Shown here: piece by piece, positions 1-57,633 of the stretch
Layout: the number at the start of each line of letters is the position of its first letter
How positions within the stretch are numbered: the first letter of the stretch is position 1
Origin: a virus
Taxonomy: Duplodnaviria; Heunggongvirae; Uroviricota; Caudoviricetes
Length of the DNA stretch: 64,000 bases
IMG/VR virus record: IMGVR_UViG_3300042296_001032
Reading direction: 5' to 3' (one strand)
Notes under the pieces: generated by a model
What the model was told of the DNA's origin: nothing
What the model saw: only the letters and a program-made list of their open reading frames with translations
Database searches by the model: none
Position numbers and translations under genes: made by a program

Positions 1-1
1 C

Positions 2-304
2 GTCTGTTTGATTTTCTTGGGTCCATTCAAAGTCGTTTTCTTCTTTTATAGTATGAACATCATGTGTTCTTCTATCAAAACTACCGTTAGAATCTTTTTC
101 CCAAACACCAACAACTTTTTTTATATTATTTTTTAATGTTTTTTGTTTTTTATTGTGATTAAATTTAGAATCAACAAAATTTGTGTATGGTTTTAATTCT
201 TTTTCATCCCATTTTTTTAAACCTAACTCCATAGGTCCAGTATAAAAACCTGAACTTATAGATGAATCAGATTCTCTTAATATTTTTTTAATTGTTTTTC
301 TCAT
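2..304 (-). CDS. Leader-family protein, truncated at window edge (translation MRKTIKKILRESDSS...)
   Basis: ATG at 304-302 overlaps the stop of the next gene. N-terminal MRKTIKKILRE leader shared with at least 12 other ORFs. ORF runs off the left window edge. Confidence 0.5.
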   Translation of the reverse strand, partial: MRKTIKKILRESDSSISSGFYTGPMELGLKKWDEKELKPYTNFVDSKFNHNKKQKTLKNNIKKVVGVWEKDSNGSFDRRTHDVHTIKEENDFEWTQENQTD

Positions 305-774
305 CGTACCCATACTTCTTTTTCATTCATTAATATAGCTTCTTTAGCTTTATAAATAGGTTCACGCGTATCAGCGTAAACAAAAGTCTTATCTCCAGCC
401 CTTGGGTTATAAGTTACAATTCTCCATCCGTTTACAATATAATTCTCACCACTACTAAGGACATAACCCACAGCACCTGCATGTACATTTTTAGATTTAC
501 CCTTACCACCTAAATCAACAGGTAAAACTTCTAAATTACCCCTTTCACCAACAACAAAATTGACATCTCTCAAATGTATTGATGTGTCATAACCAATAAC
601 TTTTCCACCTGTAACACCACCAGAAACTTTAATTGAAAAATATGGTGGAGCATTTAAATTTCTATGGACATAAACTTTTTTGTCATAACCCAAATGGCCT
701 TTCATATCTAGGTCTTTTCCTGTTCCACCCCATTGAGAAGATTCTCTTAATATTTTTTTAATTAAATCTTTCAT
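301..774 (-). CDS. Leader-family protein (MKDLIKKILRES...), 157 aa
   Basis: ORF track entry with the conserved N-terminal leader. Stop TGA overlaps the downstream ATG. Confidence 0.6.
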   Translation of the reverse strand: MKDLIKKILRESSQWGGTGKDLDMKGHLGYDKKVYVHRNLNAPPYFSIKVSGGVTGGKVIGYDTSIHLRDVNFVVGERGNLEVLPVDLGGKGKSKNVHAGAVGYVLSSGENYIVNGWRIVTYNPRAGDKTFVYADTREPIYKAKEAILMNEKEVWVR

Positions 775-973
775 TTCTTTTCTTTTCTTTCCACTTAACT
801 ATCTTACCTTTCTTTGAATTTTTTTCAAAATCCTTTTCATCGGTAAAAGACCAGTACTTATCACCTTTTTTCTTTTTATAATAAATATCAGCACCACCAA
901 TCTCACGAACTTGGTATTCACATTCGGTTTTTTTAACCTCTTCTAATAATATTTGTTTTATTAGACTTTTCAT
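758..973 (-). CDS. Leader-family small basic protein (MKSLIKQILLEE...)
   Basis: Conserved leader. 4-nt style overlap with both neighbours. Confidence 0.5.
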   Translation of the reverse strand: MKSLIKQILLEEVKKTECEYQVREIGGADIYYKKKKGDKYWSFTDEKDFEKNSKKGKIVKWKEKKRNERFN

Positions 974-1299
974 TCTTCATATTTATTATTTAAGAATTTT
1001 CTTAAAGTTTTTCTGATTAGAGGTTCACCCAAATCTTCTTTAAAATCTTCTTCAAGTAACCAATATATTTTATTGTATATATTACTTTTACCTTCAAAAT
1101 TCATATTAAAAGATTCATCCGCTCCAACTAAATGTTTAATTTTAAATTCTTCACCACTAAATTGGCTTGTAAATTCTGTTTTTACTACTTTAAAGGTATC
1201 TTCTAAAAATTTATATAAATTTAAATCAATATCAGAAGGAATTTCATCCATCCAACCAAATTCAGACTCGTTTAATATTTTTTTAATTAAAGATTTCAT
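970..1299 (-). CDS. Leader-family protein (MKSLIKKILNESEFGWMDEIPSD...)
   Basis: Leader followed by the E-S-x-x-W-x-D-E-I-P module, also seen at 13366, 47935 and 48363. Confidence 0.55.
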   Translation of the reverse strand: MKSLIKKILNESEFGWMDEIPSDIDLNLYKFLEDTFKVVKTEFTSQFSGEEFKIKHLVGADESFNMNFEGKSNIYNKIYWLLEEDFKEDLGEPLIRKTLRKFLNNKYEE

Positions 1300-3138: not shown

Positions 3139-3798
3139 TTATTTTCTCCAATCTGATGTACCAGTTGGGTAAATGTCGTTCATGTCATTATCCTCATCAT
3201 AAGGTAATCCACCCTCACCCATTTCAACCGATTTCCACATGTCACCACTATTGGTTTCATTCATTAAGAAATCAAACACTTGGTCCATATTGTTTTTAGC
3301 TTCAGCGATATGGTCTTGAGCCCAATCGTGACCTCCTTCTAGTATATCCTCAATTTGGTCCTCGTCTAAATCTAAAAGTAATCCAGCTTGTCTTCTAATT
3401 TGTTCTAGGTTAGAAAAAAACATATAACGAGAAGACTCATGTTCTTCACCTTCATTAATTTTTTCACCACAACATTTATTTATTTTAGACATAATTTTTC
3501 CGTATTGATTAAAGTCAAATTCGTCCCCAAATTTATCACCTACTTTTTTAACAGTAATTACATCTTTTCTAAACATAACTTGAGCTACATGTTTACCGTC
3601 ACAATAAATTTTAAAGTCGTTTCCATCCTTTTTTGCTTCACAATTAGACTTTAATCCTTTTTTAATTTTATCACGGAATGCATCCATTTTAACATCAAGG
3701 TCTTTTGTTGTAACAGCTTTTTGTAACTTACCTTCTTTGATTATTTTTTGAACTAATCTTTCTATATCTGATTCAGTTAATTTAATCACTTTTTTCAT
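3139..3798 (-). CDS. Hypothetical protein with acidic C-terminus; N-terminus MKKVIKLTESDIERL is weakly leader-like
   Basis: 219 aa ORF. Confidence 0.5.
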   Translation of the reverse strand: MKKVIKLTESDIERLVQKIIKEGKLQKAVTTKDLDVKMDAFRDKIKKGLKSNCEAKKDGNDFKIYCDGKHVAQVMFRKDVITVKKVGDKFGDEFDFNQYGKIMSKINKCCGEKINEGEEHESSRYMFFSNLEQIRRQAGLLLDLDEDQIEDILEGGHDWAQDHIAEAKNNMDQVFDFLMNETNSGDMWKSVEMGEGGLPYDEDNDMNDIYPTGTSDWRK

Positions 3799-3820
3799 AT
3801 CTTTATTTTTAATATAAATA

Positions 3821-6588: not shown

Positions 6589-6620
6589 GGGAGGAAATTA
6601 TTCCTCCCTTCTTTTTTTCT
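6589..6620. terminator. Intrinsic terminator hairpin GGGAGGAA-atta-TTCCTCCC, flanked by A-run and T-run (bidirectional)
   Basis: Perfect 8 bp stem followed by T7. Preceded by A6 on the other strand. Confidence 0.55.
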
Positions 6621-6783
6621 CTTTATAAACGCCTTTAGATTTTTCTCTTCTCTTTCTTACAGACTTCTTATCAAATTCTTTTCTATCATTTAATTGTGAC
6701 ATCTGACGAGTTTTTATAACCTTACCCTTATACTCTTTAAGGGCTCTTTCAATGTTGCCTTTAACAACTTCTATAATAATCAT
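6598..6783 (-). CDS. rpsU: Ribosomal protein bS21-like small basic protein
   Basis: 61 aa, begins MIIIEVVKGNIERALKEYKGKV..., a basic tail follows, KRREKSKGVYKEKKRRE. Pattern matches Bacteroidetes bS21 (MxIIxVxxGENIExALKRFKRK ... KPS.RR). Phage-encoded S21 is well documented. Confidence 0.5.
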   Translation of the reverse strand: MIIIEVVKGNIERALKEYKGKVIKTRQMSQLNDRKEFDKKSVRKRREKSKGVYKEKKRREE

Positions 6784-6794
6784 ATATAAATTTT

Positions 6795-8159
6795 TTATCT
6801 AGTTATAGATACATTTTTTTCAGGGTCATAGAATACTAATTCTTTACTAGTTAAATCTAACTGTAGTTTTTCTATTTTTTCATTTAATTCACCTAATTGT
6901 TGGTCCATATCATCTCTTTTTGTTCTATAGGACGAAATAAAATTTTCAGATTTTTCAAGTTGTTCTACAACCCAATTATATTCATCATCATCACCCTCTT
7001 CTCTACCATATTCAAGCCTTTCTTTATAATTATTTAAAGAACGATAAACCGTATTTACTCTATCTAATTTATTATCTACAATATTTCTTTTATTCCTTAA
7101 TTCTGATAGTTTTAATTTTAACTGTCTAATAGTTTCAAGTGATTCAGAAGAATCCCCCAAAGAATCATAATAATCAGCTAAAGCTTGTTTAGTGTACTTC
7201 TCCATTACCTCTTTTAATTTAGCTAATGCTTCAGTACCCTTTTTTGCTTGGCCTCTACCAGGTCCACCTAAATATTTTAAAACTGTTTTTTCTGGTTTGT
7301 TCTCATCAGCAACATTCCAATAGTCTATCACAGAATTACTGACACTACCTTGGTTAATAAACTCTTCCCTACCCAATTCTCTTGTTTTCTCTAAAGCTCT
7401 ATTATAACCCCTACTTAAACCACCACGAAAAGGACGGTAATGCATTGCTATTTTATAATAGTTTGGTGTGTCCATACTACTTGTTGGAGCTAATCTTCTT
7501 TTATCCATTAAAAAGAATATAGGACCTTGTGTAAAATAATTTTCGTAATAACCAGTATAACCTCTCATAGTAACACACCATCTAGTGTTAGAACCGTATC
7601 TACATGAAGCCTTATGTGTTTTAGGCATCAAAATTAAGAAATCATCATCTTCATAAACCTTATCAACACCAGTCTCTTTTTGTTCTTTTCTTGAAAGTTT
7701 TAATTTTGCCTCATTTGACGCGTCCTCAAGTTCTTTTAAATTACCAAACTGATTTATATCCTTTTTTTCGTATTTTGATGGGTTTTTATGGAAATACTCA
7801 ATATCATCAGTAACTTTTAACAAATCTTCATTACCAAGTGATTGCATTTCCCTAGTTAAATTACGGATGCTATTCCATCTTGAGTCTTCGGCTGTGTCAG
7901 GAACTTGGGTAATGTCCCACCCATGCCAACTTCCAGCACTACTGGCGTTATCTTTAAACCATTTGATGGTTTTTCTTAACATATTTTTGGACAACCAATC
8001 CAAATACTTTTGGTTTCCTGAAGGGTCTATATCAGCTAATCTATCAATTTGGCCCCACATTGGTTGTGGGTATTTAGCTTTAACATCCTCAAGTCTACCT
8101 TCCAATAAAAGGTTTTCAACCTTCTCTAATATAAGTGTTGTAGTTTGTTTAATATTCAT
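6795..8159 (-). CDS. Paralog family A protein (DPSGNQKYLDWL ... ASCRYGSNTRWC motifs), coiled-coil C-terminus
   Basis: Start taken at the internal Met MNIKQTT so that the terminator hairpin at 8184-8207 lies upstream. Shares an N-terminal region of about 250 aa with 11187, 14090 and 16614. Confidence 0.6.
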   Translation of the reverse strand: MNIKQTTTLILEKVENLLLEGRLEDVKAKYPQPMWGQIDRLADIDPSGNQKYLDWLSKNMLRKTIKWFKDNASSAGSWHGWDITQVPDTAEDSRWNSIRNLTREMQSLGNEDLLKVTDDIEYFHKNPSKYEKKDINQFGNLKELEDASNEAKLKLSRKEQKETGVDKVYEDDDFLILMPKTHKASCRYGSNTRWCVTMRGYTGYYENYFTQGPIFFLMDKRRLAPTSSMDTPNYYKIAMHYRPFRGGLSRGYNRALEKTRELGREEFINQGSVSNSVIDYWNVADENKPEKTVLKYLGGPGRGQAKKGTEALAKLKEVMEKYTKQALADYYDSLGDSSESLETIRQLKLKLSELRNKRNIVDNKLDRVNTVYRSLNNYKERLEYGREEGDDDEYNWVVEQLEKSENFISSYRTKRDDMDQQLGELNEKIEKLQLDLTSKELVFYDPEKNVSITR

Positions 8160-8206
8160 AATAATAAATATGCTTAAAAATAAAAAGAGGATTTTAAAAC
8201 CCTCTT

Positions 8207-9688
8207 TTACCACTCAAATTCAATTAAATTTAGTTTTTTAATTGGCAAAAATTTATGTCTTAAAGAATCAGTAGTACCAAATTTGTTATAAGATTTAATC
8301 CATATCCCACTAATCAACTTATTAAAAATACTAACTTTTTTTTCATAATCTAAAACAGCAAGATTATGTTCACTATTTTTTCTAGACCTGAAAATTAATT
8401 TTACCAATAAATCTCTTTTAAAAACACCGTATTTGTCAACGAATTTTTTTGTGATATATTCTATCATTTTAAGTTGTTCTTTAACATTTTTAGTCACAAA
8501 AATTGAACCATCAGAAAATGTTTCTTGTGCTAGATAGTTATTAAAACTATGTATTTGTTCTAAATCTTCTACAATAAAATCACAGTCAAAATAACTTGGA
8601 CTCATATTTAAAATACTAATAAAATCAAAACCACCAAAAACAGTTTCTTTGTAGATATTACTAAGATTATGTTCGTAAGTTATACTTTTTTGATTCTGAA
8701 TATTTTTACCACCAGTAACTGAACTATAAATTTTATTGTAAAATGTTAAAACTTTATTAAAAGCCTCCTCATTTTTCTTTCTAACAAATAAATTCCAAAA
8801 AGAGATTAGTTTAGTGTTATGGTGTATATAAAAATTATTATAATATTTTTCTAACTCAAAACTATTAACCGTGTAATTAAAAACTTCTTGGTTTGAGTTT
8901 ATCTCCACATTAAAATCAAAATGTTCTAAAACAAACTCTCTATTATTCTTCACTTTTTCCATCCATTCAGGACCAATAGAATGAATTTTTTTAATTGTAA
9001 ATGAGTGTTTAATTAAATTCATTTCACAATCAAAGTTTGACATGTCTACCCCCAATTGTACAGATTTGTTTTTAAGTCTTACTGATGTTTGTAGAGGTTG
9101 TGAAACATTTGTAACTTCAATCATATTAGATTCTAAGAAATCTAAAAAATCTTCAGTATAAACGATATTACCGTTAACCCTATCTAAACCAGCCATACAA
9201 CAATTCAAATCAAAAACTGTTAAGAGAGTTTTATAATATTCAGTTTCATTAAAACCTTGAATTGATTTTTTAATAGTACTAACACTAATAGAAACCTTAT
9301 TAATTATACCAAAACGTTCACTACTAAACATTCGCATTGTCTCACCACTAGGACCAACCCAAGTTCTACCATAACCATCCACACCGGCCACATTATCCAA
9401 AGTGGCATGTATAAATAAATTCGGGTCATTGGTGTTGTATGACCAATCGTAACTTAAAACGTTGTCAAAAAAGAATAAGTCAACGTCGTTAATAATTGGT
9501 TCCTCAAACTTTTCTTTGTTTAAAAGATAGTAGATAGTATTTGCTACTGCACCACCTGCCATGAAGTAATGCATGGGGTAATCATCAACCCCAGCCCCAT
9601 CTGAATGGAGTTTGTGATTGATGATTTCCAAGACCTTGTTATAGGTCTTCCCACTGTTCAAAAACTTTATTAATTCTTTTCTATTCAT
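8207..9688 (-). CDS. Putative pol-beta-superfamily nucleotidyltransferase (AGGAV...DVDLFFFD), possibly tRNA nucleotidyltransferase-like
   Basis: 493 aa. N-terminal GG-x-V then D-x-D motif resembles the head domain of CCA-adding / poly(A) polymerase enzymes. Weak. Confidence 0.4.
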   Translation of the reverse strand: MNRKELIKFLNSGKTYNKVLEIINHKLHSDGAGVDDYPMHYFMAGGAVANTIYYLLNKEKFEEPIINDVDLFFFDNVLSYDWSYNTNDPNLFIHATLDNVAGVDGYGRTWVGPSGETMRMFSSERFGIINKVSISVSTIKKSIQGFNETEYYKTLLTVFDLNCCMAGLDRVNGNIVYTEDFLDFLESNMIEVTNVSQPLQTSVRLKNKSVQLGVDMSNFDCEMNLIKHSFTIKKIHSIGPEWMEKVKNNREFVLEHFDFNVEINSNQEVFNYTVNSFELEKYYNNFYIHHNTKLISFWNLFVRKKNEEAFNKVLTFYNKIYSSVTGGKNIQNQKSITYEHNLSNIYKETVFGGFDFISILNMSPSYFDCDFIVEDLEQIHSFNNYLAQETFSDGSIFVTKNVKEQLKMIEYITKKFVDKYGVFKRDLLVKLIFRSRKNSEHNLAVLDYEKKVSIFNKLISGIWIKSYNKFGTTDSLRHKFLPIKKLNLIEFEW

Positions 9689-11164: not shown

Positions 11165-11189
11165 GGTGGGATATCCCACCTTTTTTTTA
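11165..11189. terminator. Terminator hairpin GGTGGGATATCCCACC followed by T8 (bidirectional)
   Basis: Perfect palindromic stem plus T-run. Confidence 0.55.
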
Positions 11190-12014
11190 TTTGATAACAC
11201 CCATTGTTTTTAATACAGAGGTTAATACTTCATTAACCTCATCGTTAGTTAAGTCTACAGACCTTAAAGTTTCTACTGCACGTTGTACAGATACTTTTGA
11301 TTCTGTCATGAATCTTGTTTTTAACTTCAACTTAAGTTGTTGAACAAAGTCGTCTTTAACTTTTTCTGCGGCAAAGTTAAAATTGTCACCATAGATAAGT
11401 TTAATTTGACCTAGATTTAAACCAGCATCTTCATTGTTATAAAATGTAAAACTATTAACATTAACAGTTAAACCTTTATTGCTATTAATAGGAACTCCAA
11501 ACTTTCTATTAATTCTTTTATCTATGATGTAGTATAAGAAACCTTCCCTCATATAGCTATCGTAATAACCTTTTTGAGTTGTACACCACTTAGTACCCAT
11601 ACCATATAGTTTAGAAGAATCGAAACTAAGTGGAACAAGAATTTTCCAATTATCATCTTCAAAAACAACTCTTACATCATTCTTAACCTCAGACCTAGAA
11701 GGTATATTTAATTCTTGTACCTTTAAAAGAAATTCATTGACAGTTTTAAATTTGTTTATATCTCTAAAATCAGTTGGGATTTTGCCATTTAAGTTTCTTT
11801 CAAACCAAATTAAAGATTCTTTAACAGGGTTTTCCAATGATGCTGGAAAATCAGGGTTAAGTCTATACTTACCATTAGTAAGACTAATATATCTAACTTT
11901 GAATAACCATTCAATATATTTTTGGTTAGTGGTTGGGTCCATTCTACCAATTAACGCAACAGACCTTTCAGATACACCGTATTTAGTTTTTAATTCTTCT
12001 AATTTCCTAGACAT
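11187..12014 (-). CDS. Paralog family A protein (short form; DPTTNQKYIEWL, GMGTKWCTTQKGYYDSY)
   Basis: 275 aa. TACAAATATA (-7 box TAnnTTTG on the coding strand) at 12038-12047. Confidence 0.6.
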   Translation of the reverse strand: MSRKLEELKTKYGVSERSVALIGRMDPTTNQKYIEWLFKVRYISLTNGKYRLNPDFPASLENPVKESLIWFERNLNGKIPTDFRDINKFKTVNEFLLKVQELNIPSRSEVKNDVRVVFEDDNWKILVPLSFDSSKLYGMGTKWCTTQKGYYDSYMREGFLYYIIDKRINRKFGVPINSNKGLTVNVNSFTFYNNEDAGLNLGQIKLIYGDNFNFAAEKVKDDFVQQLKLKLKTRFMTESKVSVQRAVETLRSVDLTNDEVNEVLTSVLKTMGVIK

Positions 12015-12635: not shown

Positions 12636-12950
12636 ATGAAAAATATAAGACAAATATTCAAAGGTAATGAACATCTAACGGGTTTTGGGCCTGTTGAAGA
12701 ACTAATTGAGTATTGTCAAGAACTTGAAGGACAAGTATTGGAAAGAAAAGTTGAAGACGTATATGATAAAGAATTAATTTATCTAGAAATGATTCGTGAT
12801 ATCTATAATAGTTGTAATGATATAAGGGAACAAGAAACGTTAAACGAGAGATACCCTAATGAATTTCCTGAAGTTAACTACAAAGAAATAGTCGGTAATT
12901 TAAAAACTTACATTCAAAAAATGATTCGTGAAAATAAATTACCTATATAA
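12636..12950 (+). CDS. Hypothetical protein
   Basis: 104 aa ORF with its own -7 box. Confidence 0.45.
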   Translation: MKNIRQIFKGNEHLTGFGPVEELIEYCQELEGQVLERKVEDVYDKELIYLEMIRDIYNSCNDIREQETLNERYPNEFPEVNYKEIVGNLKTYIQKMIRENKLPI

Positions 12951-13361
12951 TCTATTTGGTAAAAAACTGCCAACAAATTCCTCAAACCAAAAAGAACCTA
13001 CTTCTTTACTCATTTCAATAAGTTCATCATCACTTACTGTTGGTCCAACAAAATATCTACCCTTTTTAATAAAAAGACCTTTACCTTGTGGGTGTCTTTT
13101 TATTTCTATATAAGAAAGATATTCATCAAAGATAAGATTTTCAGGCATGTAATTCATGTCCTCTAAATAATATGCCACAGTCTTAAACTTTTCACTAAAT
13201 GTTTGTACAGCCGGATTAAATAATATTTTTTTAACTTCTGATAATGATTCTATCTTTCTTTTATTTTGTGACATTAAATCCAAATGGAAAGCATGTTGTT
13301 TAATCCAATCCATTGAATCGTCAAGTTCTTCTTTGATTATTTTTCTTAAAAATTTATCCAT
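12939..13361 (-). CDS. Leader-family-like protein (MDKFLRKIIKEELDDSMDWIK)
   Basis: Start moved to the internal Met. Leader-like KIIKEELDD plus the DWIK module. Confidence 0.45.
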   Translation of the reverse strand: MDKFLRKIIKEELDDSMDWIKQHAFHLDLMSQNKRKIESLSEVKKILFNPAVQTFSEKFKTVAYYLEDMNYMPENLIFDEYLSYIEIKRHPQGKGLFIKKGRYFVGPTVSDDELIEMSKEVGSFWFEEFVGSFLPNRLYR

Positions 13362-13365
13362 AATA

Positions 13366-13902
13366 CTATACAAAAATTGTTACTTTCTTTTGGAATATCT
13401 CCCTCAAAAATTCGTCATTACCTTCCCAACCATCGTAAGATGTACCATAAATAGTTGCACCAAAATATCTACCATCACTTTTTCTTTGCCAAATAAGTCT
13501 ATCTGTAAAAGATTGGGCATCTAAATCCCAATCTACATTTTCTTGTGACATATGTTCCCATTTAGAACAATCCTTTAAAAGTGGTTCCATTATACTCCAA
13601 TCAGTAAGGTTAGGTGTATTATCCCATTCACCATTTTCTTTCCAATCACCACTTTCCCATTGGTCAAACCCATAGTCATCCCATTCTTCAGGTGTAAATC
13701 TTAATTTATACTCTTCCGTTGGTGAATAATACCCTTCTCTGTATAATTCGTTGAATAAATTAGTATTTTCTAACATGTAATCAAACACTAAATCTTCGAT
13801 AGGTAATTTAACTCTATTACTCCAAGAAGGTACTTCATCAGAAATATCTTTAATCCAATCTAAATCAGATTCCTTTAATATTTTTTTAATTATATTTTTC
13901 AT
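13366..13902 (-). CDS. Leader-family protein (MKNIIKKILKESDLDWIKDISDEVPSW)
   Basis: 178 aa. Conserved leader and module. Confidence 0.6.
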   Translation of the reverse strand: MKNIIKKILKESDLDWIKDISDEVPSWSNRVKLPIEDLVFDYMLENTNLFNELYREGYYSPTEEYKLRFTPEEWDDYGFDQWESGDWKENGEWDNTPNLTDWSIMEPLLKDCSKWEHMSQENVDWDLDAQSFTDRLIWQRKSDGRYFGATIYGTSYDGWEGNDEFLREIFQKKVTIFV

Positions 13903-13928
13903 TTTTATTATAAATATATAATAGGCAT

Positions 13929-14089: not shown

Positions 14090-15265
14090 TTAATCAAGAT
14101 TATTTTTTATTTTGTATTCTTCTAAATAATCTCCAATAAATAATTCTGCTTCTTTATAATAATGGTTACTCATTTCAAACCCTACTACTTCATCTAATAT
14201 TTCATTAAATTCTTCTTCATATTCATCAACTATTTCTTCAGTTAAAACATCTGAGATTTCTAAAGGTCTGCCAAACACTCTCTCTATTTCTTCCCCAATG
14301 GGTAGGTCTGGGTTAATATTATACTTCTGTCCTAATATTAATTTAACCGTATAGGTTAATTCTCGTAATAACATATCTCTATCAATATAATAATCATTAA
14401 ATGGTGAATTATTCAAATCTTGTAATAACATATCATATAACTCTTCCTTATCCATACCGAGGTGTAATAACTCTTCCAGATCAAAACCAGGTGAGTCAAA
14501 TAATCCATCCATAACTTCATTATTTATTATAAAATATGAGTGACTTTCAATAAAACTCTTAAAATTTATTAAATCCTCAAATGTTGTAATAAAATCATGT
14601 CCATTATTAGTTAACCAATCATTAATATAGTTATAATTAATACGACCAATTTGTTCTGGTGATGCCGTCATTTTTCTTGAGTTGTGGTACTCCATTAATT
14701 TTTCAATAATTTGTTCGTATTTTGGATGTAGATGAATTATAATTTGAGGATTTGTTTTACAATTATTAACTGCATTACACCAATCGGTTCCACCCCCTGC
14801 TTTAATATGGTAAGAAAATTTATGATTTGGGTCGTCCTGTGGTTTGTTTTTAAAAATCCAAAAGAATTCAGTTCCAGTAGTATTATGTCTATCCCAGTAT
14901 GAACTAGTATCTTTAGCAGTTGTACACCATTTAGAACCCGCACCATATTTACAAGACGCTTCCCACGTATTAGCTGCCACTACCAACAAGTCTTTATCTT
15001 CATAAAACTTAGTAACATCATCAGGGGCTTTAGCCTTTTTAATTTGATTTAAATCTTTTAATAATTCTTCATAAGAATTGTAATTAGCAAAATCTTTTTT
15101 TGGTAGACTTCTTCTATTATCAATTACATCATCCATTATTTTCATGGCAGCCTCAGGGTTACCACTTTTCTTATTAGCCCAAGATTTATAAAGATTTTGT
15201 ATATGTTCAATACCCTCAAAAAGTGAACGTTTAATTTCTTCTAAAATAATTTTTTTAATATTCAT
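14090..15265 (-). CDS. Paralog family A protein (MNIKKIILEE...; ASCKYGAGSKWCTTAKD)
   Basis: Start at the internal Met. Shares the family motifs. Confidence 0.6.
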   Translation of the reverse strand: MNIKKIILEEIKRSLFEGIEHIQNLYKSWANKKSGNPEAAMKIMDDVIDNRRSLPKKDFANYNSYEELLKDLNQIKKAKAPDDVTKFYEDKDLLVVAANTWEASCKYGAGSKWCTTAKDTSSYWDRHNTTGTEFFWIFKNKPQDDPNHKFSYHIKAGGGTDWCNAVNNCKTNPQIIIHLHPKYEQIIEKLMEYHNSRKMTASPEQIGRINYNYINDWLTNNGHDFITTFEDLINFKSFIESHSYFIINNEVMDGLFDSPGFDLEELLHLGMDKEELYDMLLQDLNNSPFNDYYIDRDMLLRELTYTVKLILGQKYNINPDLPIGEEIERVFGRPLEISDVLTEEIVDEYEEEFNEILDEVVGFEMSNHYYKEAELFIGDYLEEYKIKNNLD

Positions 15266-15283
15266 ATTAATAAATATACTGTA

Positions 15284-15313
15284 CAAAAAAAAAGACCCAC
15301 ATTTCTGTGAGTC
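15284..15313 (-). terminator. Intrinsic terminator (GACTCACAGAAATGTGGGTC followed by T9, minus strand)
   Basis: Stem plus long T-run, downstream of the tmRNA region. Confidence 0.5.
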
Positions 15314-15525: not shown

Positions 15526-15908
15526 TGGTGGAGGTGGAGGGTTTCGAACCCTCGTCCTGCGTTACATTACTAACGTCTTCTACATGCTTATTCCATTTTA
15601 ATCTAAATGGACAAAATATTTGATTTATTATTTACCATTGTAAATCAACAAACAATGGGTATCATTCGATTTTGGGTTCAATGATAATCCACCACAACTA
15701 CGACTTCTGTTGCTAGGTTATATGTCTGCCGACCCCGTAGTAACACCTAATATGATTAGGCAGCTACTGTTGCACCTTCAGTCACAAAGTGACCTACAGT
15801 TGCGTTTGCGAATACGTCGCCGTTTGAAGTTTCAATACGTGTATTAACGTGATAGTATTATTTCACGACATGCTTACCCATTACCAATCGTTAACCAGTC
15901 AAATCCAA
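15526..15908 (-). ncRNA. ssrA: tmRNA (ssrA-like)
   Basis: Minus-strand 5' end GGGGGTGTTTTTGGATTTGACTGG matches the canonical GGGGCUGAUUCUGGAUUCGACGGG. 3' end ...TAAGCATGTAGAAGACG...GGACGAGGGTTCGAAACCCTCCACCTCCACCA matches canonical UAAGCAUGUAG...GGUUCGA..CCACCA. Internal candidate tag frame ends ...EGATVAA then TAA. Confidence 0.7.
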
Positions 15909-15969
15909 AAACACCCCCAATAATTCAAAGAACTCTTACAAATATAAGAATAAATATTAAATAATCAAA

Positions 15970-16201: not shown

Positions 16202-16612
16202 ATGGCTATACCTAAAAGTAAAAAGGACCTTGAGTTAATTCAGGAATGTAGAGTCTTGGTTAGAAAAAACCCACACCTCAAAAAACGTAAATTAAATGCT
16301 ATAAAAGATTTAGAAAAAAGACTTTATTATATAAAAGTATGGGTTATAACTGAATCACAACCACTTTTTAAATTAATAAACTATGACAAACGGTGTTTTA
16401 GGGGACCTTCCTGTTATCATTTGGACCACACGGTACCAATAATTTACGGTTACAATAATAACATCCCACCCGAAAAAATAGGGGGTATTTCTAACCTAAG
16501 ATTTATACCTTCAGAGGATAACATAAGGAAAGGATATAAAATAACTGAAGAATCACATAAAGTTTTAAGGAAATTTAAGCGGAAAGGTGATATTTATAAA
16601 AAAAAGAAATAA
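16202..16612 (+). CDS. HNH endonuclease (HLDHTVPI...N...N motif)
   Basis: 136 aa. His-Asn-Asn spacing typical of HNH nucleases. Confidence 0.5.
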   Translation: MAIPKSKKDLELIQECRVLVRKNPHLKKRKLNAIKDLEKRLYYIKVWVITESQPLFKLINYDKRCFRGPSCYHLDHTVPIIYGYNNNIPPEKIGGISNLRFIPSEDNIRKGYKITEESHKVLRKFKRKGDIYKKKK

Positions 16613-16613
16613 A

Positions 16614-18038
16614 ATGAAATTTAACTTATCTCAAATTTTAGAATCTACTATATTATTAGAAGGTAGAAGAGAAGATGTAATTAAAAAATATGGTGAAGAC
16701 CATACCGAACTTGTTGATATGTTTGTTGAGGTTGACCCATCAGGAAATAACAAATATCTTGACTGGATGATTAAAACCGCTTTAGGTAAAAATCAAGATG
16801 ACAGTATACCAATGGCTGACCAAATAGCTAAAGCTGTAGTGGACTATCATAGACTATTACCTAGAATTAAACAAAAAGATATTAATACTTATAAATCTTT
16901 ATCTGAATTAAATGATGTTGTTGCTCAAGCTTTAAAAGATGAAAAAGACAAAAGAATTTCTAAAGAAGCGACAAAAATTTATGACAAAGATGGTGTTGTG
17001 ATTTACGTACCATTCACAGTTGAAGCTTCATGTAAATATGGTGCTGGGTCTAAGTGGTGTATAGCTGGTAAAAGTGGTGATAATAATTTAAATACTTATT
17101 TTGACTCCTATAGTGAACACTCAAATTTCTACTTTTTTATTAACAATAATTTAGTTAATAGTGATAGTACACATTACAAATACGCTTTACAATGGAGATT
17201 TGATGGTAATGGTAGAGATTTAACTTGGTGGGATGCACGAGATGATTCACACAGTAACGCACCTTATTGGGTGACTCCTGATATGATGGCGGTTGTGGAA
17301 GCTTTTAATCCTTCACACACTAAGAAAAAATTAGCTATAAAAATAGCTTCTTTCCTTGATGACCCTAAATTTGATGAGTACGCTAAATTTAAAGATTATA
17401 TTACACCTGAACAAAAAACTAACGTGATTAGTAAAATTATTAAAAAAGGTGGACTTAACTCTAAAGCTTTTAGTATTTTAGCGTCTGACCTTAATGATAA
17501 ACAAAAAATGGACTTTATCACTAACTACGTCAAAGGTACAGTTAACGCTAATGATTATAAACAAATGCAAGAACATTTAACAGAGTTACAAAAAATGACT
17601 TTAGTTAAATTCAATCCATCTATTCTTAATAATATTGATGTTATGAATGACTTGAATAAGGAATTGACAGATGACCAAAAATATGAATTATCTAAAGTAG
17701 TTGACGCAAAACAAATAAACAATACAGATAGTAAAGTATTGTTTAGAAAATGGTCTATGAGTGCTGAAGAAAGAGCAAAACACGGTCAAACTTCTTTCTA
17801 TGTATTCTTATCTAATCCAGAAGACTTAGTTGAGAAGATAGTTAAAGTTGACCCATTAGACCCAGAATCATATAGAACAATCAACATGATGAAACTAAGA
17901 AAACAAGTACAACCTGATACTTCAATGTATGGTATTAAAACTGAATCTGGTTTCCTTGATGATTACATTGGTAAATCTACATCAGATATACCTACTTCTG
18001 TTTTAGAAACTATAAAAGAAAAATCAACAAAAATTTAA
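16614..18038 (+). CDS. Paralog family A protein (MKFNLSQILES...; DPSGNNKYLDWM; ASCKYGAGSKWCIAGK)
   Basis: Start at the internal Met to avoid overlap with the HNH gene. Terminator follows. Confidence 0.6.
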   Translation: MKFNLSQILESTILLEGRREDVIKKYGEDHTELVDMFVEVDPSGNNKYLDWMIKTALGKNQDDSIPMADQIAKAVVDYHRLLPRIKQKDINTYKSLSELNDVVAQALKDEKDKRISKEATKIYDKDGVVIYVPFTVEASCKYGAGSKWCIAGKSGDNNLNTYFDSYSEHSNFYFFINNNLVNSDSTHYKYALQWRFDGNGRDLTWWDARDDSHSNAPYWVTPDMMAVVEAFNPSHTKKKLAIKIASFLDDPKFDEYAKFKDYITPEQKTNVISKIIKKGGLNSKAFSILASDLNDKQKMDFITNYVKGTVNANDYKQMQEHLTELQKMTLVKFNPSILNNIDVMNDLNKELTDDQKYELSKVVDAKQINNTDSKVLFRKWSMSAEERAKHGQTSFYVFLSNPEDLVEKIVKVDPLDPESYRTINMMKLRKQVQPDTSMYGIKTESGFLDDYIGKSTSDIPTSVLETIKEKSTKI

Positions 18039-18623: not shown

Positions 18624-18683
18624 AACTTATTATTTATACAAATATAAGCATACTTTTTTGTTTGGCAAAATATTTATATAAGA

Positions 18684-20579
18684 ATGAAAGAAATCATTAG
18701 AAAAATATTAAAGGAAACTGAGGAAGAGTTAGACAACTCAAACCTAATAGATTTACCAAAACATACTGAACCATCTAAGGGTGTTGTTGCTCCATCTCAA
18801 AAAGTTATTTCAGATGTTTGTGAAAAAGAACAGTTTTGTAAAAAACAGGGCCCAATCACTTTTGGTCAATTAAGAACTTTAGTTGAAACTGCTCAAAATA
18901 AAAATTTAACATACGATATCGGTGAGGGGGTTTATAAAGCCTTAATAAGATTGATACCGTGGTTTTTTCCACAAATAGCTGTGGCCGGTTTTGTTGGTAG
19001 TTCTATTAGGGCTTTCAATAAAATAATAAAACCAGGATTAGAAGATACTAGAGGTTATAAAAAATGGTGGGGTAGAACTTTAATTCATGTTATGGATGCT
19101 GTTGAGGGTGATATCCCTCACGAAGACCCCATATCAAAAATATTTTTTATCTCAGATGGTTTGTTACATATGATGGATAGAAAATTCAAAATTAAATTTG
19201 CTAGATATATATCTGAATTAGCAGCATCAAAACCAGATTCAGAACCAGTTCCAGAATATTTTGTTGAGAATGAATTGAGAAATTGGATTAATCAAAAGTT
19301 CTTATTAAGTCCACCATTAGAACCAAAAACAATGAATGAATCTAAAGAATTAGATGACATTGATTGGATGAGGGGTGATATTGAAACACCACTTAAAGAT
19401 TTTAAAGATTTAGGTTATGAATTGACAGATGTTCTTGGTTTTAACGTTAGAATATCTGAAAATTCAAGATTTTATAATGCCGACGATGAAGATAATCCAA
19501 TAGAAGAAGTGGGTATCATTAATGACGTTTACACGACTTTTGGTGATAGTTTACCCATACAAGTTAAATGGATTGGTCGTACAAATAGTTACAGTTGGGA
19601 GGATTTAATAGTTGTCAGCCAAGGAAATAAATTAAATGAATCTGAAGAAGATGATTGGGGTTGGGCTAAAGAAATTGAAGTAAAAACTGATTTAACTCCG
19701 GCACAAATTTATAATAGATACCAAACATTCCCTATAGAAATAGTTGGTCCTTATATTGCTGGTCAATTTATAGATATAGAATATCGAAGTGGTAAATTAT
19801 ATTTTATTGCTGGTGATTGGTGTGACCTTATACGATTATTTGAAGATAATGATGGTGGTTACAGTTATATGAATAGGTATCTAGCCAAAGCTGTTTTTTG
19901 TGATGAAGATTATTGGGAACCTTACTCAGCCAGTGACCTTATTGGTCGTGAATGGAAAAGTAATGTGTGGGATTTGGTTACAGATGACCAAAAAGCTTTA
20001 GAGTATATAAAAAAATATATTAGGAAAGGTGGTTTTATAGACGGAGAATTGGAAAACGGTGAACCATTTAGGGAAGACATGTTATTAGATGATGATTTAA
20101 TGGGTGACCTGATAAATGAAGACGAAATGTTTGATGATTTAAAAATGGAATTAGGTTGGGCTTATGCAAGTTCATATAACAATGCTGTATCTAGTGGTAT
20201 TTACACTACAGCTGTAGATAGTATTAAAGATTTATTAGGTCAACCTATATGGGAAAATAATAATCTTGTTTTTGAATCTACAGATTTAATTTTAGATGTA
20301 ATAAAAAACAAAATATCTGGATGTTGGGACAGTTGTAAAAAATATTATGACCCTGAAAGACATTATGACACTACAGAACATGCAGATGAAATAGAAGCTT
20401 TTGAAAGTTTTTGTGAAGAATGTATAGATGAACCATTTGGTCATTGGTCTTATTTTAATGATTTCTATGCTGATGTCTTGGACGAAGAAAATGAAGATTT
20501 AAGCCCACATTACAGTGATTACGCCACCAATTCAGATATGAAAGAATATTTTTTAGAAGACCTTTATAGTAGAATATAA
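18684..20579 (+). CDS. Leader-family large acidic protein (MKEIIRKILKETEEELD...), 631 aa
   Basis: Conserved leader. Very acidic C-terminal half. Terminator follows. Confidence 0.6.
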   Translation: MKEIIRKILKETEEELDNSNLIDLPKHTEPSKGVVAPSQKVISDVCEKEQFCKKQGPITFGQLRTLVETAQNKNLTYDIGEGVYKALIRLIPWFFPQIAVAGFVGSSIRAFNKIIKPGLEDTRGYKKWWGRTLIHVMDAVEGDIPHEDPISKIFFISDGLLHMMDRKFKIKFARYISELAASKPDSEPVPEYFVENELRNWINQKFLLSPPLEPKTMNESKELDDIDWMRGDIETPLKDFKDLGYELTDVLGFNVRISENSRFYNADDEDNPIEEVGIINDVYTTFGDSLPIQVKWIGRTNSYSWEDLIVVSQGNKLNESEEDDWGWAKEIEVKTDLTPAQIYNRYQTFPIEIVGPYIAGQFIDIEYRSGKLYFIAGDWCDLIRLFEDNDGGYSYMNRYLAKAVFCDEDYWEPYSASDLIGREWKSNVWDLVTDDQKALEYIKKYIRKGGFIDGELENGEPFREDMLLDDDLMGDLINEDEMFDDLKMELGWAYASSYNNAVSSGIYTTAVDSIKDLLGQPIWENNNLVFESTDLILDVIKNKISGCWDSCKKYYDPERHYDTTEHADEIEAFESFCEECIDEPFGHWSYFNDFYADVLDEENEDLSPHYSDYATNSDMKEYFLEDLYSRI

Positions 20580-25458: not shown

Positions 25459-25923
25459 TTAAAGTTTTTGTGAATGGATATAAGGAACGTCTAATCCATA
25501 ATTTTCTTTTATCCAATCTCGGAATATATCTGATATTTCTGAAGAATTCAGATCAAATCCCTGTCTCAAAAACGTCCAAATAGAATCATCTACAAACATT
25601 TGGTTAGTGTCATGGTCGTAAGCCATAATATCTCTTTCACCATCTTTATACATTACATATCTATAATCCCTCTCAACGCTTTTACCGTTAACAGTCATTA
25701 CCTTTATAGTATCAGTTTTAAGTTGTTCCTCTTCTAATTGTGGAATTCTATCTAAGAAATTATTATAGTCACCACCATAAATTTCATCTGCTAATTTTTT
25801 AGCACCACCCACATCTTGAGCATCTTGTTCCCAATTTAAAGGATCATATTTATAATTGGATGACATACCAAAATCATCCAAAAAAGACTCTTTTAAAATT
25901 TTCTTAATCAATCGTTTCATCAA
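25459..25923 (-). CDS. Leader-family protein (MMKRLIKKILKESFLDDF)
   Basis: 154 aa. Conserved leader. Confidence 0.6.
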   Translation of the reverse strand: MMKRLIKKILKESFLDDFGMSSNYKYDPLNWEQDAQDVGGAKKLADEIYGGDYNNFLDRIPQLEEEQLKTDTIKVMTVNGKSVERDYRYVMYKDGERDIMAYDHDTNQMFVDDSIWTFLRQGFDLNSSEISDIFRDWIKENYGLDVPYIHSQKL

Positions 25924-25934
25924 TAATAAATATC

Positions 25935-38491: not shown

Positions 38492-38498
38492 TTTTTTT

Positions 38499-47934: not shown

Positions 47935-48363
47935 TTAATAATTTACGTTTATTAACCCAGGGTAAACCCACCAACATCTATTATCACACATATTAGCAAT
48001 CTCCCCATTTTTTTCACCACTAAAATTGTCACTAATCCCATCATGTCCATTAGTACTTTCATAAAATTTTAATAATAATACTTCTACCTCTTTAGTATAA
48101 CAACCATTTGTTTTTACCCTCATTTTTGGTACCACTTCTACTAATATTACTTTTACTTCAGATTCATAATCAACATCATCTGGGAAGTATTCATCAACAC
48201 AATCATCAGTCATAACTTCAGATTTAAGATTTATTGTAAAAGATTCACCTTTTAATTTGTTATGATATAAATCCCAACCATCTATAATTGGTGGTATCTC
48301 ATCTAGCCATGCCCAATCTGGGTCAGTAGATTCTTTTAATATTTTTTTAATTAAATTTCTCAT
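47935..48363 (-). CDS. Leader-family protein (MRNLIKKILKESTDPDWAWLDEIPPIIDGW)
   Basis: 142 aa. Leader plus ESTDPxWxWL module. Confidence 0.6.
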   Translation of the reverse strand: MRNLIKKILKESTDPDWAWLDEIPPIIDGWDLYHNKLKGESFTINLKSEVMTDDCVDEYFPDDVDYESEVKVILVEVVPKMRVKTNGCYTKEVEVLLLKFYESTNGHDGISDNFSGEKNGEIANMCDNRCWWVYPGLINVNY

Positions 48364-49739
48364 TATATTTCGTAAAAATCTACCATATTAGAGGATACCC
48401 AAAAGTAACTAATTTTATTATCATCTATATCATAAAAATATAATTGTAAAGTAAAAACTTCATCTTCTATTTCTGAATCACAATGTATTCGATTATAAGA
48501 TATTGTATCAGTTTTGGTGACAACACCGTAATACCCTTGTACAAATATTCTTGAATTATCACCACATGACTCAATAGCGTCTCGTAAATCTTCTTTTACT
48601 TCTATTTTATATTTTTTATGTAATTCAACCATTTCAAATGGGATTGTAACAGGTACATCATTTAGCCACTCCCATTCTGGGTCAGTAGATTCTTTCACTA
48701 ATTCAGGATTTTGATAATCTTCAAAAACCTTTTTAACTTGATTTAAATTGGTATATAATTCATATTCATTGTTAAATGTGTCACCATCTTCTAACCATTC
48801 AAAAATTGACCTGTCAGCTACATCATAACCCCAATAACCAACGGACAATAAACTGGGTTTGTTTTTTTCTACAAAAAATGAGACTGATATTACAGCATTA
48901 GAAGGGTTATAGTCACTACCCTCTAATTCATCCCTACTATTTTCTAAACCACTATGTAAATTTTCTCTTACATTACCTCTAGGTAATTCACCACCATTAT
49001 AAGTTTCTATAATATCACAAAATTCATCAATTTCATCATGGTCACGAAGATAAACCACACCTTGTGGATGTCCATTATAATTTGGTTGTACCCCAGTATT
49101 TTTAGCCCAATCAAAATCGTCACCAAATTCTATTTCATCTTCTTCTGACATTGTATCTTCTGATGATTTTGAGACACCACCTCCATCACCTTGTACCCAT
49201 TGGCTTTTTGCTGTATCGGTTGTCCAATTGTTAGTGTCAGGGCCATAATAGTTATCAGTACCCCAATTAGGGTCTTTATCCCAATTAATTGTGTCTTTAT
49301 CAGACCAATTTAAACTTTCTTTTAAATTTTGTTCTTCTTTGATTTTGATGTACTCATACACTTCTCTACCGTCAATATAAATACTATTATTTTTTTCTTC
49401 GTCATCATCAAAAGAAAACTCCATAAAACATACATAATTTTCTGTGGGATAATAATCATTATCTTCACTACCGCAATGAATGACAACACCATCATAATCT
49501 CCTAAATTTTTAAACTTAGTTTTTCGTAACCCACTAATGTTTGGTAAACATTTTAAAATGTAATCAGCAACAACACTAATTTCATCTTTAGTCATTTTAG
49601 TTAAATCGACCCAATATTCGTGTTTACCATCAAACTCAAAATTCCAATTTTTAAAGGTCGGTTCGATTTCATTAAACCAATTACCTAACTCATCAGAATT
49701 TTCTTTTAATATCTTTCTAATTCTATTTCGCATTTCCAC
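48363..49739 (-). CDS. Leader-family protein with an internal duplication of the ES(T)DPxWxWLN(D/E)(I/V)P module (MEMRNRIRKILKENSDELGNWFNEIEPTF ... ESTDPEWEWLNDVPVTIPF)
   Basis: 458 aa. ATG overlaps the stop of 47935..48363. Confidence 0.6.
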   Translation of the reverse strand: MEMRNRIRKILKENSDELGNWFNEIEPTFKNWNFEFDGKHEYWVDLTKMTKDEISVVADYILKCLPNISGLRKTKFKNLGDYDGVVIHCGSEDNDYYPTENYVCFMEFSFDDDEEKNNSIYIDGREVYEYIKIKEEQNLKESLNWSDKDTINWDKDPNWGTDNYYGPDTNNWTTDTAKSQWVQGDGGGVSKSSEDTMSEEDEIEFGDDFDWAKNTGVQPNYNGHPQGVVYLRDHDEIDEFCDIIETYNGGELPRGNVRENLHSGLENSRDELEGSDYNPSNAVISVSFFVEKNKPSLLSVGYWGYDVADRSIFEWLEDGDTFNNEYELYTNLNQVKKVFEDYQNPELVKESTDPEWEWLNDVPVTIPFEMVELHKKYKIEVKEDLRDAIESCGDNSRIFVQGYYGVVTKTDTISYNRIHCDSEIEDEVFTLQLYFYDIDDNKISYFWVSSNMVDFYEI

Positions 49740-50688: not shown

Positions 50689-51594
50689 TTAGATTTCATC
50701 ACCATTTTTATCGAATTTTAATTCGTTATTATCTATATCAAACATAATAATACCATAATCGGTAGGTGAAGCAGTAAAGTCAATCTTTCCATATTTTTTT
50801 AATCCTCTAGATTCTTTTGCCTGAATCTCATTACTCTTAACTTGTATCGTATAAACCTCACCACCAGAATTCACTATAAGGTCTACACCAAAAATCATAT
50901 CAACAAAGTCCCCATCACCCCCCTGATACACTGTATCTATTTGAGCCTTTGTTAAAATGTTTTTAACATCGTTTTCAGCTTTTTCACCTATTTTTGATAA
51001 GTGTTTTGTATTTCTTACGAAAGATTTAAACTCATCTAATTTTATATACTTATCTATAACTCTTTCTAACTTATCTTTAATAGATATAAGATACTTCCTT
51101 AATCCTAAAGCGTTTTTATCTTTTAGGGTACCTACCATATTACCTCTGATAAATAATTCTGTTAATAGTTCAGCTAAATCAGAATAATTTGTGTTTAATT
51201 TATTAATAGAATCCCATTTACCATTATCATCATAAACTCTATTAACAGATTTCATGGCCTCATTTTGATAGTAGTCATTTTCTTTTGAGATATAATCATA
51301 TCTACCTGATTGATTGTATTTACCTGTTTCCCATAAAATAGCTAGTGGTTCTTGGTATTGATTGTTTAAATCAACAAGTTTTTTCATTTGGTTGGTTTTA
51401 AAATCAATGATTCTTTGTAAACCTAAACCATCCTCTGAATATAAAAATTTACCAAGAGAATTTAAATTTGAACATAGGTTCTGCTGGTCCTCATCTTTAA
51501 AATGGGAACATATTTTATAACTGGTGTCTTCGTAATCATCGAACAATGATAATTGTTCTTCTCTTAATACTTTTCTAATAGTTTTTTTCATCAA
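50689..51594 (-). CDS. Leader-family protein (MMKKTIRKVLREEQLSLFDD)
   Basis: 301 aa. Conserved leader. Confidence 0.55.
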   Translation of the reverse strand: MMKKTIRKVLREEQLSLFDDYEDTSYKICSHFKDEDQQNLCSNLNSLGKFLYSEDGLGLQRIIDFKTNQMKKLVDLNNQYQEPLAILWETGKYNQSGRYDYISKENDYYQNEAMKSVNRVYDDNGKWDSINKLNTNYSDLAELLTELFIRGNMVGTLKDKNALGLRKYLISIKDKLERVIDKYIKLDEFKSFVRNTKHLSKIGEKAENDVKNILTKAQIDTVYQGGDGDFVDMIFGVDLIVNSGGEVYTIQVKSNEIQAKESRGLKKYGKIDFTASPTDYGIIMFDIDNNELKFDKNGDEI

Positions 51595-51605
51595 TAATAA
51601 ATATC

Positions 51606-52400: not shown

Positions 52401-52401
52401 T

Positions 52402-56360: not shown

Positions 56361-56410
56361 TTTAACAATATTTTATTTTTATTATATATTAAATCTACTA
56401 TTAAAAAAAC

Positions 56411-57610: not shown

Positions 57611-57633
57611 TAAAGTTTTATTATAAATATCCT

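Follow-up and report, generated by a model that had tools for sequence, protein, structure and literature searches.

A leader of 11 residues, M-K-x-L-I-K-K-I-L-x-E, opens a series of otherwise unrelated proteins encoded by a virus of the Caudoviricetes (IMGVR_UViG_3300042296_001032). The stretch of DNA that was analysed, called the window, is 64,000 nt long, with 30% G+C and ~94 open reading frames (ORFs), about 4/5 of them on the minus strand. We see about an even chance that this leader, or tag, is a targeting and cleavage propeptide resembling the capsid-targeting sequence (CTS) of phage T4 and used on a much larger scale.

The leader and the proteins that carry it

Leaders were detected with a position-specific scoring matrix scan in six frames and by direct reading of ORF starts. 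Ten window ORFs open with M-[KR]-x-[LITR]-I-[KR]-[KQ]-[IV]-L-x-E, starting at 304, 774, 973, 1299, 13902, 25920, 48363, 49733 and 51591 on the minus strand and at 18684 on the plus strand. Weaker leaders were found at 13361 and 15265 and an extended form at 3798 (Table 1), and ~14% of the window genes are tagged. The original prediction of at least 13 ORFs with a near-identical start followed by divergence was borne out as 10 strong and 3 weaker or extended cases with mutually unrelated bodies. Most of its coordinates were right; 25923, 49739 and 51594 turned out to be upstream TTG/GTG codons, with the leader ATG 3–6 nt further in. All window leaders begin at the first ATG, 1–14 codons past an in-frame stop. 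A back-translated pattern allowing up to two mismatches had 6 matches in the window and 0 in 100/100 dinucleotide-preserving shuffles, and a chance origin of the leader is excluded.

M1, I5, L9 and E11 are invariant in 10/10 strong window cases. The ending follows the T4-type cleavage motif (L/I)-x-E, as had been proposed, with Leu or Ile at P3, a variable P2 and an invariant Glu at P1. It had been said always to read I-L-(K/R)-E, which is nearly so, the exceptions being ILNE, ILLE, VLRE and IIKE. Beyond residue 12 the tagged window proteins are unrelated in sequence and 71–631 aa long, and a Pfam domain, Phage_L5_gp82, was found in just one of them. The term fast-evolving suits this protein repertoire and not the tag, which is far more conserved than the T4 CTS.

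A degenerate DNA pattern identified at least 116 IMG/VR stretches (loci numbered with L below) on contigs of 4–380 kb, in which tandem arrays of 3–5 tagged genes each are common. The 172 complete tagged ORFs in ~1.2 Mb of IMG/VR loci fell into 61 BLAST-unrelated body families. Domains in the tagged bodies include Fe/Mn superoxide dismutase (SOD), NUDIX, Peptidase_M23, SLT transglycosylase, PG_binding_1, AAA_33/zeta-toxin-like kinase, GNAT, LRR, C39-like peptidase, GP88 and L5_gp82. When the same pattern was run over 596 Gb of bacterial and archaeal genomes, six matches were obtained. Five are not real leaders, and matches in Winogradskyella and in a goat Clostridia metagenome-assembled genome were rejected on this ground. 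The sixth is a phage-like contig, L123 (QCKH01000009.1, from the Prochlorococcus sp. AG-409-L21 single-cell assembly), the same as IMG/VR L040. This contig is 63,985 bp long and holds four tandem tagged genes plus one extended variant. Two explanations offer themselves: cyanobacteria too may be encountered by the lineage, or the sorted cell was accompanied by a particle. By these searches the tag is virus-specific and essentially absent from cellular genomes.

A profile built from the window N-termini found 94 representatives at E <= 1e-3 among 1.84 billion proteins, a lower bound for so short a motif, and the tag stood at residue 1 in 84/93 of the profile matches retrieved. GenBank phages gave no megablast or tblastn match to the window or to tagged proteins, and the tag was found in no cultured phage. 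A literal search of papers for tag peptide strings found none, and literature searches on the CTS and on the flavobacterial phage immuto (see below) returned no description of the tag. The principle is known from T4; no account of the tag itself, of the lineage, or of how broadly and modularly the tag is used seems to exist in the literature that could be searched.

With family weighting, position 9 is L in 96% and I in 4%, position 10 is K, R, S, L, T or N, and E11 is kept in all near-matches of an unconstrained scan. The tag is basic, with four Lys/Arg, and its helical hydrophobic moment (0.73–0.83) lies in the top 2% of shuffles. Orthologs of the window protein at 301–774 consist of the tag, a variable linker and the L5_gp82 domain, and the mycobacteriophage homologue begins at the domain itself, without the tag. 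In an AlphaFold2 (AF2) model of this protein residues 2–13 form a lone helix with a pLDDT <50, and the β-rich domain is at ~90; on this model the leader is a detachable helix ahead of a folded domain. A PDB fold search with the L5_gp82-domain model returned nothing.

Conservation halts at Glu11 and resumes as [DE]-F-[DE]-W at residues 13–16 in 19/61 families (chance ~2%). Module chains were recognised in the proteins P0025, P0037, P0085, P0052, P0036 and P0099, and in the 456-aa window protein (...NPELVKE/STDPEWEW..., the slash marking the known or predicted cleavage point here and below). Among the profile matches, x-x-x-E-[STNG] precedes 26/35 internal DFDW-type module starts. At these 26 junctions P3 is L in 15 and I in 9, and P1' is S in 23; P2 varies, and so does P4, where the N-terminal tag has an invariant Ile. 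The module proteins were chosen by a profile that includes the motif, and in an unselected set the enrichment is weaker (9/45 vs 7%). [LI]-x-E-S persists at module starts and MKxLIKKI is confined to true N-termini, a division that matches the two-part T4 CTS with its N-terminal targeting. At the sequence level the junction motif suggests polyprotein processing.

Several other kinds of signal were considered and rejected. A Sec, Tat or lipoprotein signal peptide does not fit a leader with no run of more than two hydrophobic residues and a mean hydrophobicity of -0.18 to -0.29. The C39-processed double-glycine leader was discarded because the tag ends in x-E and has no Gly-Gly, and the type IX secretion signal because that signal is C-terminal. 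A phage-nucleus import signal was likewise rejected, and the likeness of DFDW...IP to the tail of the single-stranded DNA-binding protein was dismissed as superficial.

Carrier lineage, late-type promoters and known systems

In 29 loci, tblastn with T4 and immuto proteins placed homologues of sheath, tube, baseplate hub, terminase and portal no more than a few kb from tagged genes, which lie on the same strand as the structural genes. The closest cultured relative is Flavobacterium phage vB_FspM_immuto (immuto). Its head module is T4-type and encodes a Gp23 capsid protein along with a 'prohead core protein serine protease'; Peptidase_S77 and Portal_T4 were both detected in immuto. Positions 60,001–160,000 of immuto (100 kb) contain no canonical tag and four weak look-alikes, so that immuto is no ready model; the weakly tagged gp114 directly precedes baseplate genes.

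IMG/VR yielded at least 600 sequences closely related to the portal of L079, a tagged contig (portal identity 77–99%). In 80 of the related loci terminase is followed by portal, two small proteins, protease, scaffold-like protein and major capsid protein (MCP). The protease (for example L164 12376–13092) is a Peptidase_S77 (gp21 family, E 1.4e-22), the MCP is a Gp23 (E 6e-71), and Portal_T4 is present. The T4 gp23 maturation site FLTE65/A aligns with (Y/F)LINE/A of the lineage MCPs, and from a match at the gp23 cut position the lineage protease probably keeps the [LI]-x-E specificity. By these homologies the carriers are a deep T4-like lineage that is abundant and uncultured. The host is probably a member of the Bacteroidota, within the Flavobacteria, given the TAnnTTTG boxes described below, the lack of a Shine-Dalgarno sequence, a CHU_C type IX secretion domain and the fact that the host of immuto is flavobacterial.

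There may be a second shared-leader family in the lineage, as ORFs past the MCP gene share another N-terminal motif, ..EEKNRILNLHESATK... In L164 repeated N-termini with this type of motif occur at 17604, 18698 and 20523, and one such ORF (listed at L164 18698–19828) has a TseH-like type VI effector domain.

An (A/G)TATTTAT(A/T) box precedes nearly all immuto structural genes, and in the lineage it stands before the genes for sheath, portal, protease and scaffold. Where a tagged gene has an intergenic region to itself, the box is TATTTAT in 36 cases and host-type in 4, vs 177:99 for other genes (Fisher p = 9e-4), a count limited to the 40 tagged genes with an upstream box that could be placed in a single class. 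The 4 host-type cases actually contain GTATTTAT. From these boxes we infer that the tagged proteins are expressed late, alongside head and tail proteins. In the window, boxes at 3814–3820, 13910–13916, 15270–15276, 18671–18677, 25926–25932 and 51597–51603 serve tagged genes or operons, and the first of them probably drives the operon from 3798 to 1, including four further leader genes. Many window genes, among them those starting at 12014, 12556, 12636(+), 18623, 24647, 28117, 31230, 32656, 35263, 35976, 47760 and 55876, have the canonical Bacteroidota sigma-A -7 box TAnnTTTG (TATATTTG or TATCTTTG) a short way upstream. By sequence TAnnTTTG seems to mark early or host-type genes and TATTTAT late or structural ones.

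The T4 CTSs, read from NC_000866, are MKTYQEFIAE/A in the internal proteins IPII and IPIII, MAKINELLRE/S in gp24 and MELITELFDE/D in Alt, and have the same layout as the tag. The gp21 cleavage motif is L/I-X-E, and T4 CTS targeting maps to the N-terminal part, notably residues 4 and 7 (PMC9026906). T-even internal proteins are diverse defence proteins with only the CTS in common (PMC3012670; PMC5694885). The CTSs of IPI-III, Alt and gp24, which are removed by gp21, are N-terminal propeptides of 10–19 residues on otherwise unrelated, diverse and non-essential proteins, and the tag resembles them in this setting. Both begin with Met and a polar residue, place hydrophobics in helical register and end in [LI]-x-E before a small or acidic residue; the tag would also share the two-part logic of N-terminal targeting and C-terminal processing. 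In both cases the genes lie in plastic regions with a conserved 5' end, and the head module of the lineage is T4-type and includes an S77 protease.

The tag differs from the T4 CTS in several ways. It has no sequence homology to MKTYQEFIAE and is basic where the T4 CTS is acidic; since only the pattern is alike and the charge is opposite, the tag is analogous to the T4 CTS, or a very remote variant of it, and not homologous by sequence. At 11 residues, it hardly varies even between phages that have diverged greatly, which is not so of the T4 CTS, and it fronts at least 61 families, with ~13 genes in 64 kb vs ~5 T4 genes. The tagged bodies are mostly acidic (median pI 4.7), whereas T4 internal proteins are basic. 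The tag is missing from head-vertex and capsid proteins and was found on no head-module protein in 846 kb of portal-centred loci, whereas T4 gp24 does bear a CTS-like leader. Finally, the tag is coupled to a promoter box at fixed spacing, its [LI]-x-E-S is reused at internal junctions, and its packaging and cleavage are predicted from sequence.

In phiKZ, 201phi2-1 and SPN3US, inner-body and ejection proteins have propeptides that gp21-like proteases cut after (S/A/G)-x-E or A-x-E. Like the present lineage, these phages have large genomes; many packaged proteins, and a diverged gp21 homologue that processes many of those inside the head after Glu, would be further points in common. Identical N-termini of paralogs have been described in phiKZ-type giant phages (PMC5694885). 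The propeptides there are mostly >100 residues long with no single shared short tag, the lineages differ, and P3 is a small residue, compared with Leu/Ile here and in T4.

The payload signals of extracellular contractile injection systems (eCIS) and Photorhabdus virulence cassettes (PVC) and the cargo-loading peptides of encapsulins offer another comparison. There a short terminal peptide loads diverse unrelated enzymes into a phage-derived particle, and the cargo genes cluster beside structural genes. Compared with the tag, such signals are longer or lie at the C-terminus, no protease is linked to them and their sequences are not similar to it; the particle here is an infectious T4-like phage. 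The eCIS-type position was examined, and tagged arrays do sit inside tail modules, on the structural strand; a payload signal of this kind is further defined by delivery to the lumen of the tube and by an ATPase of its own.

Selection on the tag and its possible roles

Synonymous usage at codons 4, 5, 6, 10 and 11 is close to the same-contig background in 98 distinct tagged genes from public viral contigs. Arg6 is written AGA, AGG, CGT and CGC, and Leu4 is spread over six codons. A translation-blind nucleotide scan with up to seven mismatches added ~75 gene starts at which the encoded peptide is preserved apart from conservative changes. Across its near-matches position 10 is K, R, N, S, T, L or V, and Glu11 is constant. 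The varied synonymous codons, the conservative substitutions and the fixed Glu11 together indicate that the tag is selected as a peptide. In 85/174 tagged genes there is no box and the gene directly abuts an upstream ORF; these are therefore internal cistrons, and retention of the tag in them argues against a purely RNA-level role. A shared start produced by a repeated promoter or ribosome-binding-site element, the artefact that the original prediction had warned of, is largely excluded by the codon analysis together with the internal position of half of the tagged genes.

In L003 (2661–2695), and also in L006, L049, L100 and L105, the gene for an acidic coiled-coil protein (...NKKNIKRI and stop) lies upstream of a tagged gene, and its last ~12 codons overlap the leader. 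The overlap is out of frame, and the leader DNA in such pairs is dual-coding.

In the T4-like interpretation, residues 1–8 would form a short basic amphipathic helix that docks the protein onto the prohead core, and residues 9–11 ([LI]-x-E) would be the site at which a gp21-type (Peptidase_S77) prohead protease removes the tag. Placed in front of many unrelated accessory proteins, often directly past a late box, the tag would mark products made together with head and tail proteins. These would be packed in the particle, trimmed and delivered with the DNA to the probably flavobacterial host, and multi-module proteins would be cut at [LI]-x-E-S junctions in the same step. Core docking, cleavage, packaging and ejection are steps we infer. 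In its broadest form, a single 11-residue tag fused to a late promoter loads dozens of proteins per genome, from >60 families and including polyproteins cut at [LI]-x-E-S, into the capsid for injection; we consider this possible rather than probable. All the indirect sequence tests that were run agree with the capsid targeting that had been proposed; the head proteins, however, lack the tag, and the nucleotide-level features described below had not been foreseen.

Other observations weigh against capsid targeting as well. The cargo would be very large and, as described above, acidic, and the near-invariance of the tag is unlike a T4 CTS. The original prediction had called for a search for a prohead protease and for portal and MCP genes; S77, Gp23 and portal were all found in the lineage, but the protease was not seen on the window's own contig, where head and tail hits are gp23-like fragments and a tube-like ORF only. 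Codons 7–9 are nearly always AAA-ATA-TTA, conserved well beyond codon bias (ATA 93% vs 38% background, TTA 85% vs 58%), and the box ends 5–9 nt (about 6) before the ATG in 92% of box-bearing tagged genes, vs 28% of other genes with a distance of <=10 nt. Both features point to an extra constraint at the DNA or RNA level. The conserved unit might then be mainly nucleic acid, a late promoter box with a fixed spacer and an optimal first 33 nt, that serves to translate (near-)leaderless late mRNAs and/or as a homology patch for cassette swaps, with the peptide as a by-product. No Shine-Dalgarno sequence is visible, the phage encodes an S21-like protein and tRNA-Ile(TAT), and the tandem arrays suggest cassette turnover, all of which would suit such a unit. 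Near-background synonymous variation, with Arg6 drawn from two unrelated codon families, does not suit it, nor does the tag in boxless internal cistrons. The short spacing is also found in many untagged genes; the remaining upstream DNA is not conserved, and that of the window's tagged genes is not alignable; and the internal [LI]-x-E-S junctions are remote from any start codon. We regard a mainly nucleic-acid element as improbable.

The peptide could also serve an end unrelated to the capsid, as a docking or handling signal for a DnaK/DnaJ/ClpB-type chaperone, a protease adaptor (as a degron), the membrane or a phage hub protein, and so affect the folding, lifetime or location of late accessory proteins within the infected cell. 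A Lys-rich amphipathic helix on acidic bodies would fit, the window and related contigs encode DnaJ, FKBP and ClpB-like proteins, many bodies are ordinary cytoplasmic enzymes (SOD, NUDIX, kinases), and the lack of the tag on head proteins would be expected. However, handling leaves unexplained the invariant Glu11 beside a variable position 10, the sole retention of [LI]-x-E-S at internal junctions and the agreement with the cleavage site conserved in the MCP. Neither strict co-regulation with structural genes nor embedding in tail modules would be needed for a degron or membrane anchor, and there is no hydrophobic stretch fit for membrane insertion; we think such a signal rather unlikely. The gene positions could equally point to a tail-related role, in which the tag directs proteins to the tail, the baseplate or another non-capsid compartment of the virion, with or without cleavage, much as N-terminal signals package the payloads of contractile injection systems. 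Tagged arrays are flanked by tube and baseplate hub or by sheath and tube, or they immediately precede the sheath gene, besides those adjoining terminase; peptidoglycan hydrolases (M23, SLT) are typical tail-tip enzymes, and the weakly tagged gp114 of immuto stands right before baseplate genes. Yet the [LI]-x-E ending fits the head protease, which is active inside proheads, and in the window and many other loci tagged genes are far from tail genes. The lumen of a myovirus tube is filled by the tape-measure protein, which therefore leaves little room for dozens of cargo species, and we give a tail signal a low probability. Least of all do we expect that the shared start was simply inherited, with no signalling role, from one ancient paralogous family or small domain ('ILKES-DFDW-V-x-D-I-P') whose C-terminal parts diverged. 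That [DE]-F-[DE]-W follows the tag in 19/61 families, that internal modules open with the same motif and that tandem paralog arrays occur would agree with common descent, but the tag fronts unrelated Pfam domains found untagged elsewhere (SOD, NUDIX, M23, SLT, L5_gp82), conservation ends sharply at Glu11 in two thirds of families, and AF2 puts the helix outside the fold. Descent of this kind is very improbable.

Other features of the window and significance

Table 1. Leader ORFs, TATTTAT boxes and the internal junction of the window.
Feature	Position	Strand	Length and remarks
Leader ORF MRKTIKKILRES...	1..304	-	runs off left window edge
Leader MKDLIKKILRES (742-774), linker and Phage_L5_gp82 domain	301..774	-	157 aa
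Leader ORF MKSLIKQILLEE	758..973	-	71 aa; internal operon cistron
Leader ORF MKSLIKKILNES-EFGW-MDEIP	970..1299	-	109 aa; leader and second motif
Extended leader ORF MKKVIKLTESDIERLVQKIIKEG	3139..3798	-	219 aa
TATTTAT box, class A late-type	3814..3820	-	15 nt upstream of ATG 3798
Weak leader ORF MDKFLRKIIKEE	12939..13361	-	140 aa
Leader ORF MKNIIKKILKES-DLDW-IKDI	13366..13902	-	178 aa; ortholog at IMG/VR locus L022
TATTTAT box	13910..13916	-	7 nt upstream of ATG 13902
Weak leader ORF MNIKKIILEE	14090..15265	-	391 aa; phrog_17056 paralog; TATTTAT box 15270-15276
TATTTAT box	18671..18677	+	6 nt upstream of ATG 18684
Leader ORF MKEIIRKILKET	18684..20579	+	631 aa
Leader ORF MKRLIKKILKES	25459..25920	-	153 aa; TATTTAT box 25926-25932
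Leader ORF MRNLIKKILKES-TDPDWAW-LDEIP	47935..48363	-	142 aa
Leader ORF MRNRIRKILKEN, multi-module	48363..49733	-	456 aa
Internal junction L-V-K-E/S, then TDPEWEWLNDVP	48690..48701	-	within the 456-aa protein
Leader ORF MKKTIRKVLREE	50689..51591	-	300 aa; TATTTAT box 51597-51603; conserved beside gp23-like fragments

The extended leader at 3798 reads MKKVIKLTE/SDIERLVQKIIKE/G, with two [LI]-x-E motifs, and the body behind it has a homologue without the leader in the huge phage LR745206 (Lac Pavin huge phages). The junction in the 456-aa protein is, by its sequence, a relic of the leader and second motif at a module boundary. The window phage is found on contigs of 0.2–1 Mb and is therefore a huge phage; contig search extended the window by ~6 kb. 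Pfam and PHROGs recognised few of the window or neighbouring proteins.

Two small adjoining ORFs of 141 and 78 aa at 50064–50685 (minus strand) resemble the T4/immuto major capsid protein (gp23 residues ~244–335 and the C-terminus). They are conserved beside the tagged gene 50689–51591 in L004, L053, L084 and L135–L139 and could be a decayed or repurposed capsid-protein remnant. A search with the window's gp23-like fragment found only unrelated high-GC T4-like capsid loci, without tagged genes. The 169-aa ORF at 21620–22129 (minus strand) is 25–29% identical over ~150 aa to the tail-tube homologues of 17 tagged loci and weakly matches the immuto tail tube, a tube-like paralog outside any tail module. 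Four paralogs of the unknown family phrog_17056 / phrog_28193 lie on both strands at 6795–8213, 11187–12014, 14090–15286 and 16587–18038. Homologues are present in ~10 tagged loci, and one of the window paralogs (14090–15265) has a weak leader.

A two-component-like set at 38054–42435 (minus strand) consists of a GAF-PAS-PAS histidine kinase (641 aa), a HATPase_c kinase (467 aa) and a small ORF with a receiver-domain-like start. The 735-aa protein at 43353–45560 (plus strand), with a TATTTAT box upstream, contains a PKD-like domain and a CHU_C type IX secretion sorting domain, a Bacteroidota-specific export signal. Auxiliary genes at 51606–53133, 53899–55341, 55947–58566, 6598–6783 and 8207–9688, all on the minus strand, encode two adjoining Mom-family proteins, DUF2828/DUF7788 (TROVE-like), FKBP, DnaJ, a weak Gad2-like protein and a 61-aa ribosomal S21-like protein. 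The tRNA genes number 24 and, with a tmRNA gene, are grouped in several clusters at 15526–15918 and 23544–47310; among them is tRNA-Ile(TAT), which reads ATA, the codon at leader position 8 in 93% of tagged genes.

If the tag is a capsid-targeting propeptide, T4-style leader packaging of anti-host proteins would not be peculiar to coliphages. A phage lineage that is very abundant in aquatic habitats would have built the packaging trick up into a large and modular set of effectors, an effector-delivery system of a scale comparable to bacterial secretion systems. Hundreds of proteins of unknown function would become probable injected effectors, and these would be prime candidates for anti-defence and host-takeover functions in Bacteroidota. 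M-K-x-L-I-K-K-I-L-x-E at residue 1 would then be a sequence rule for finding such proteins in metagenomes, and a compact, highly conserved and portable tag for packaging foreign proteins and for engineered protein delivery. The fixed promoter-tag cassette and the polyprotein junctions offer hypotheses on how such repertoires are built and diversified.

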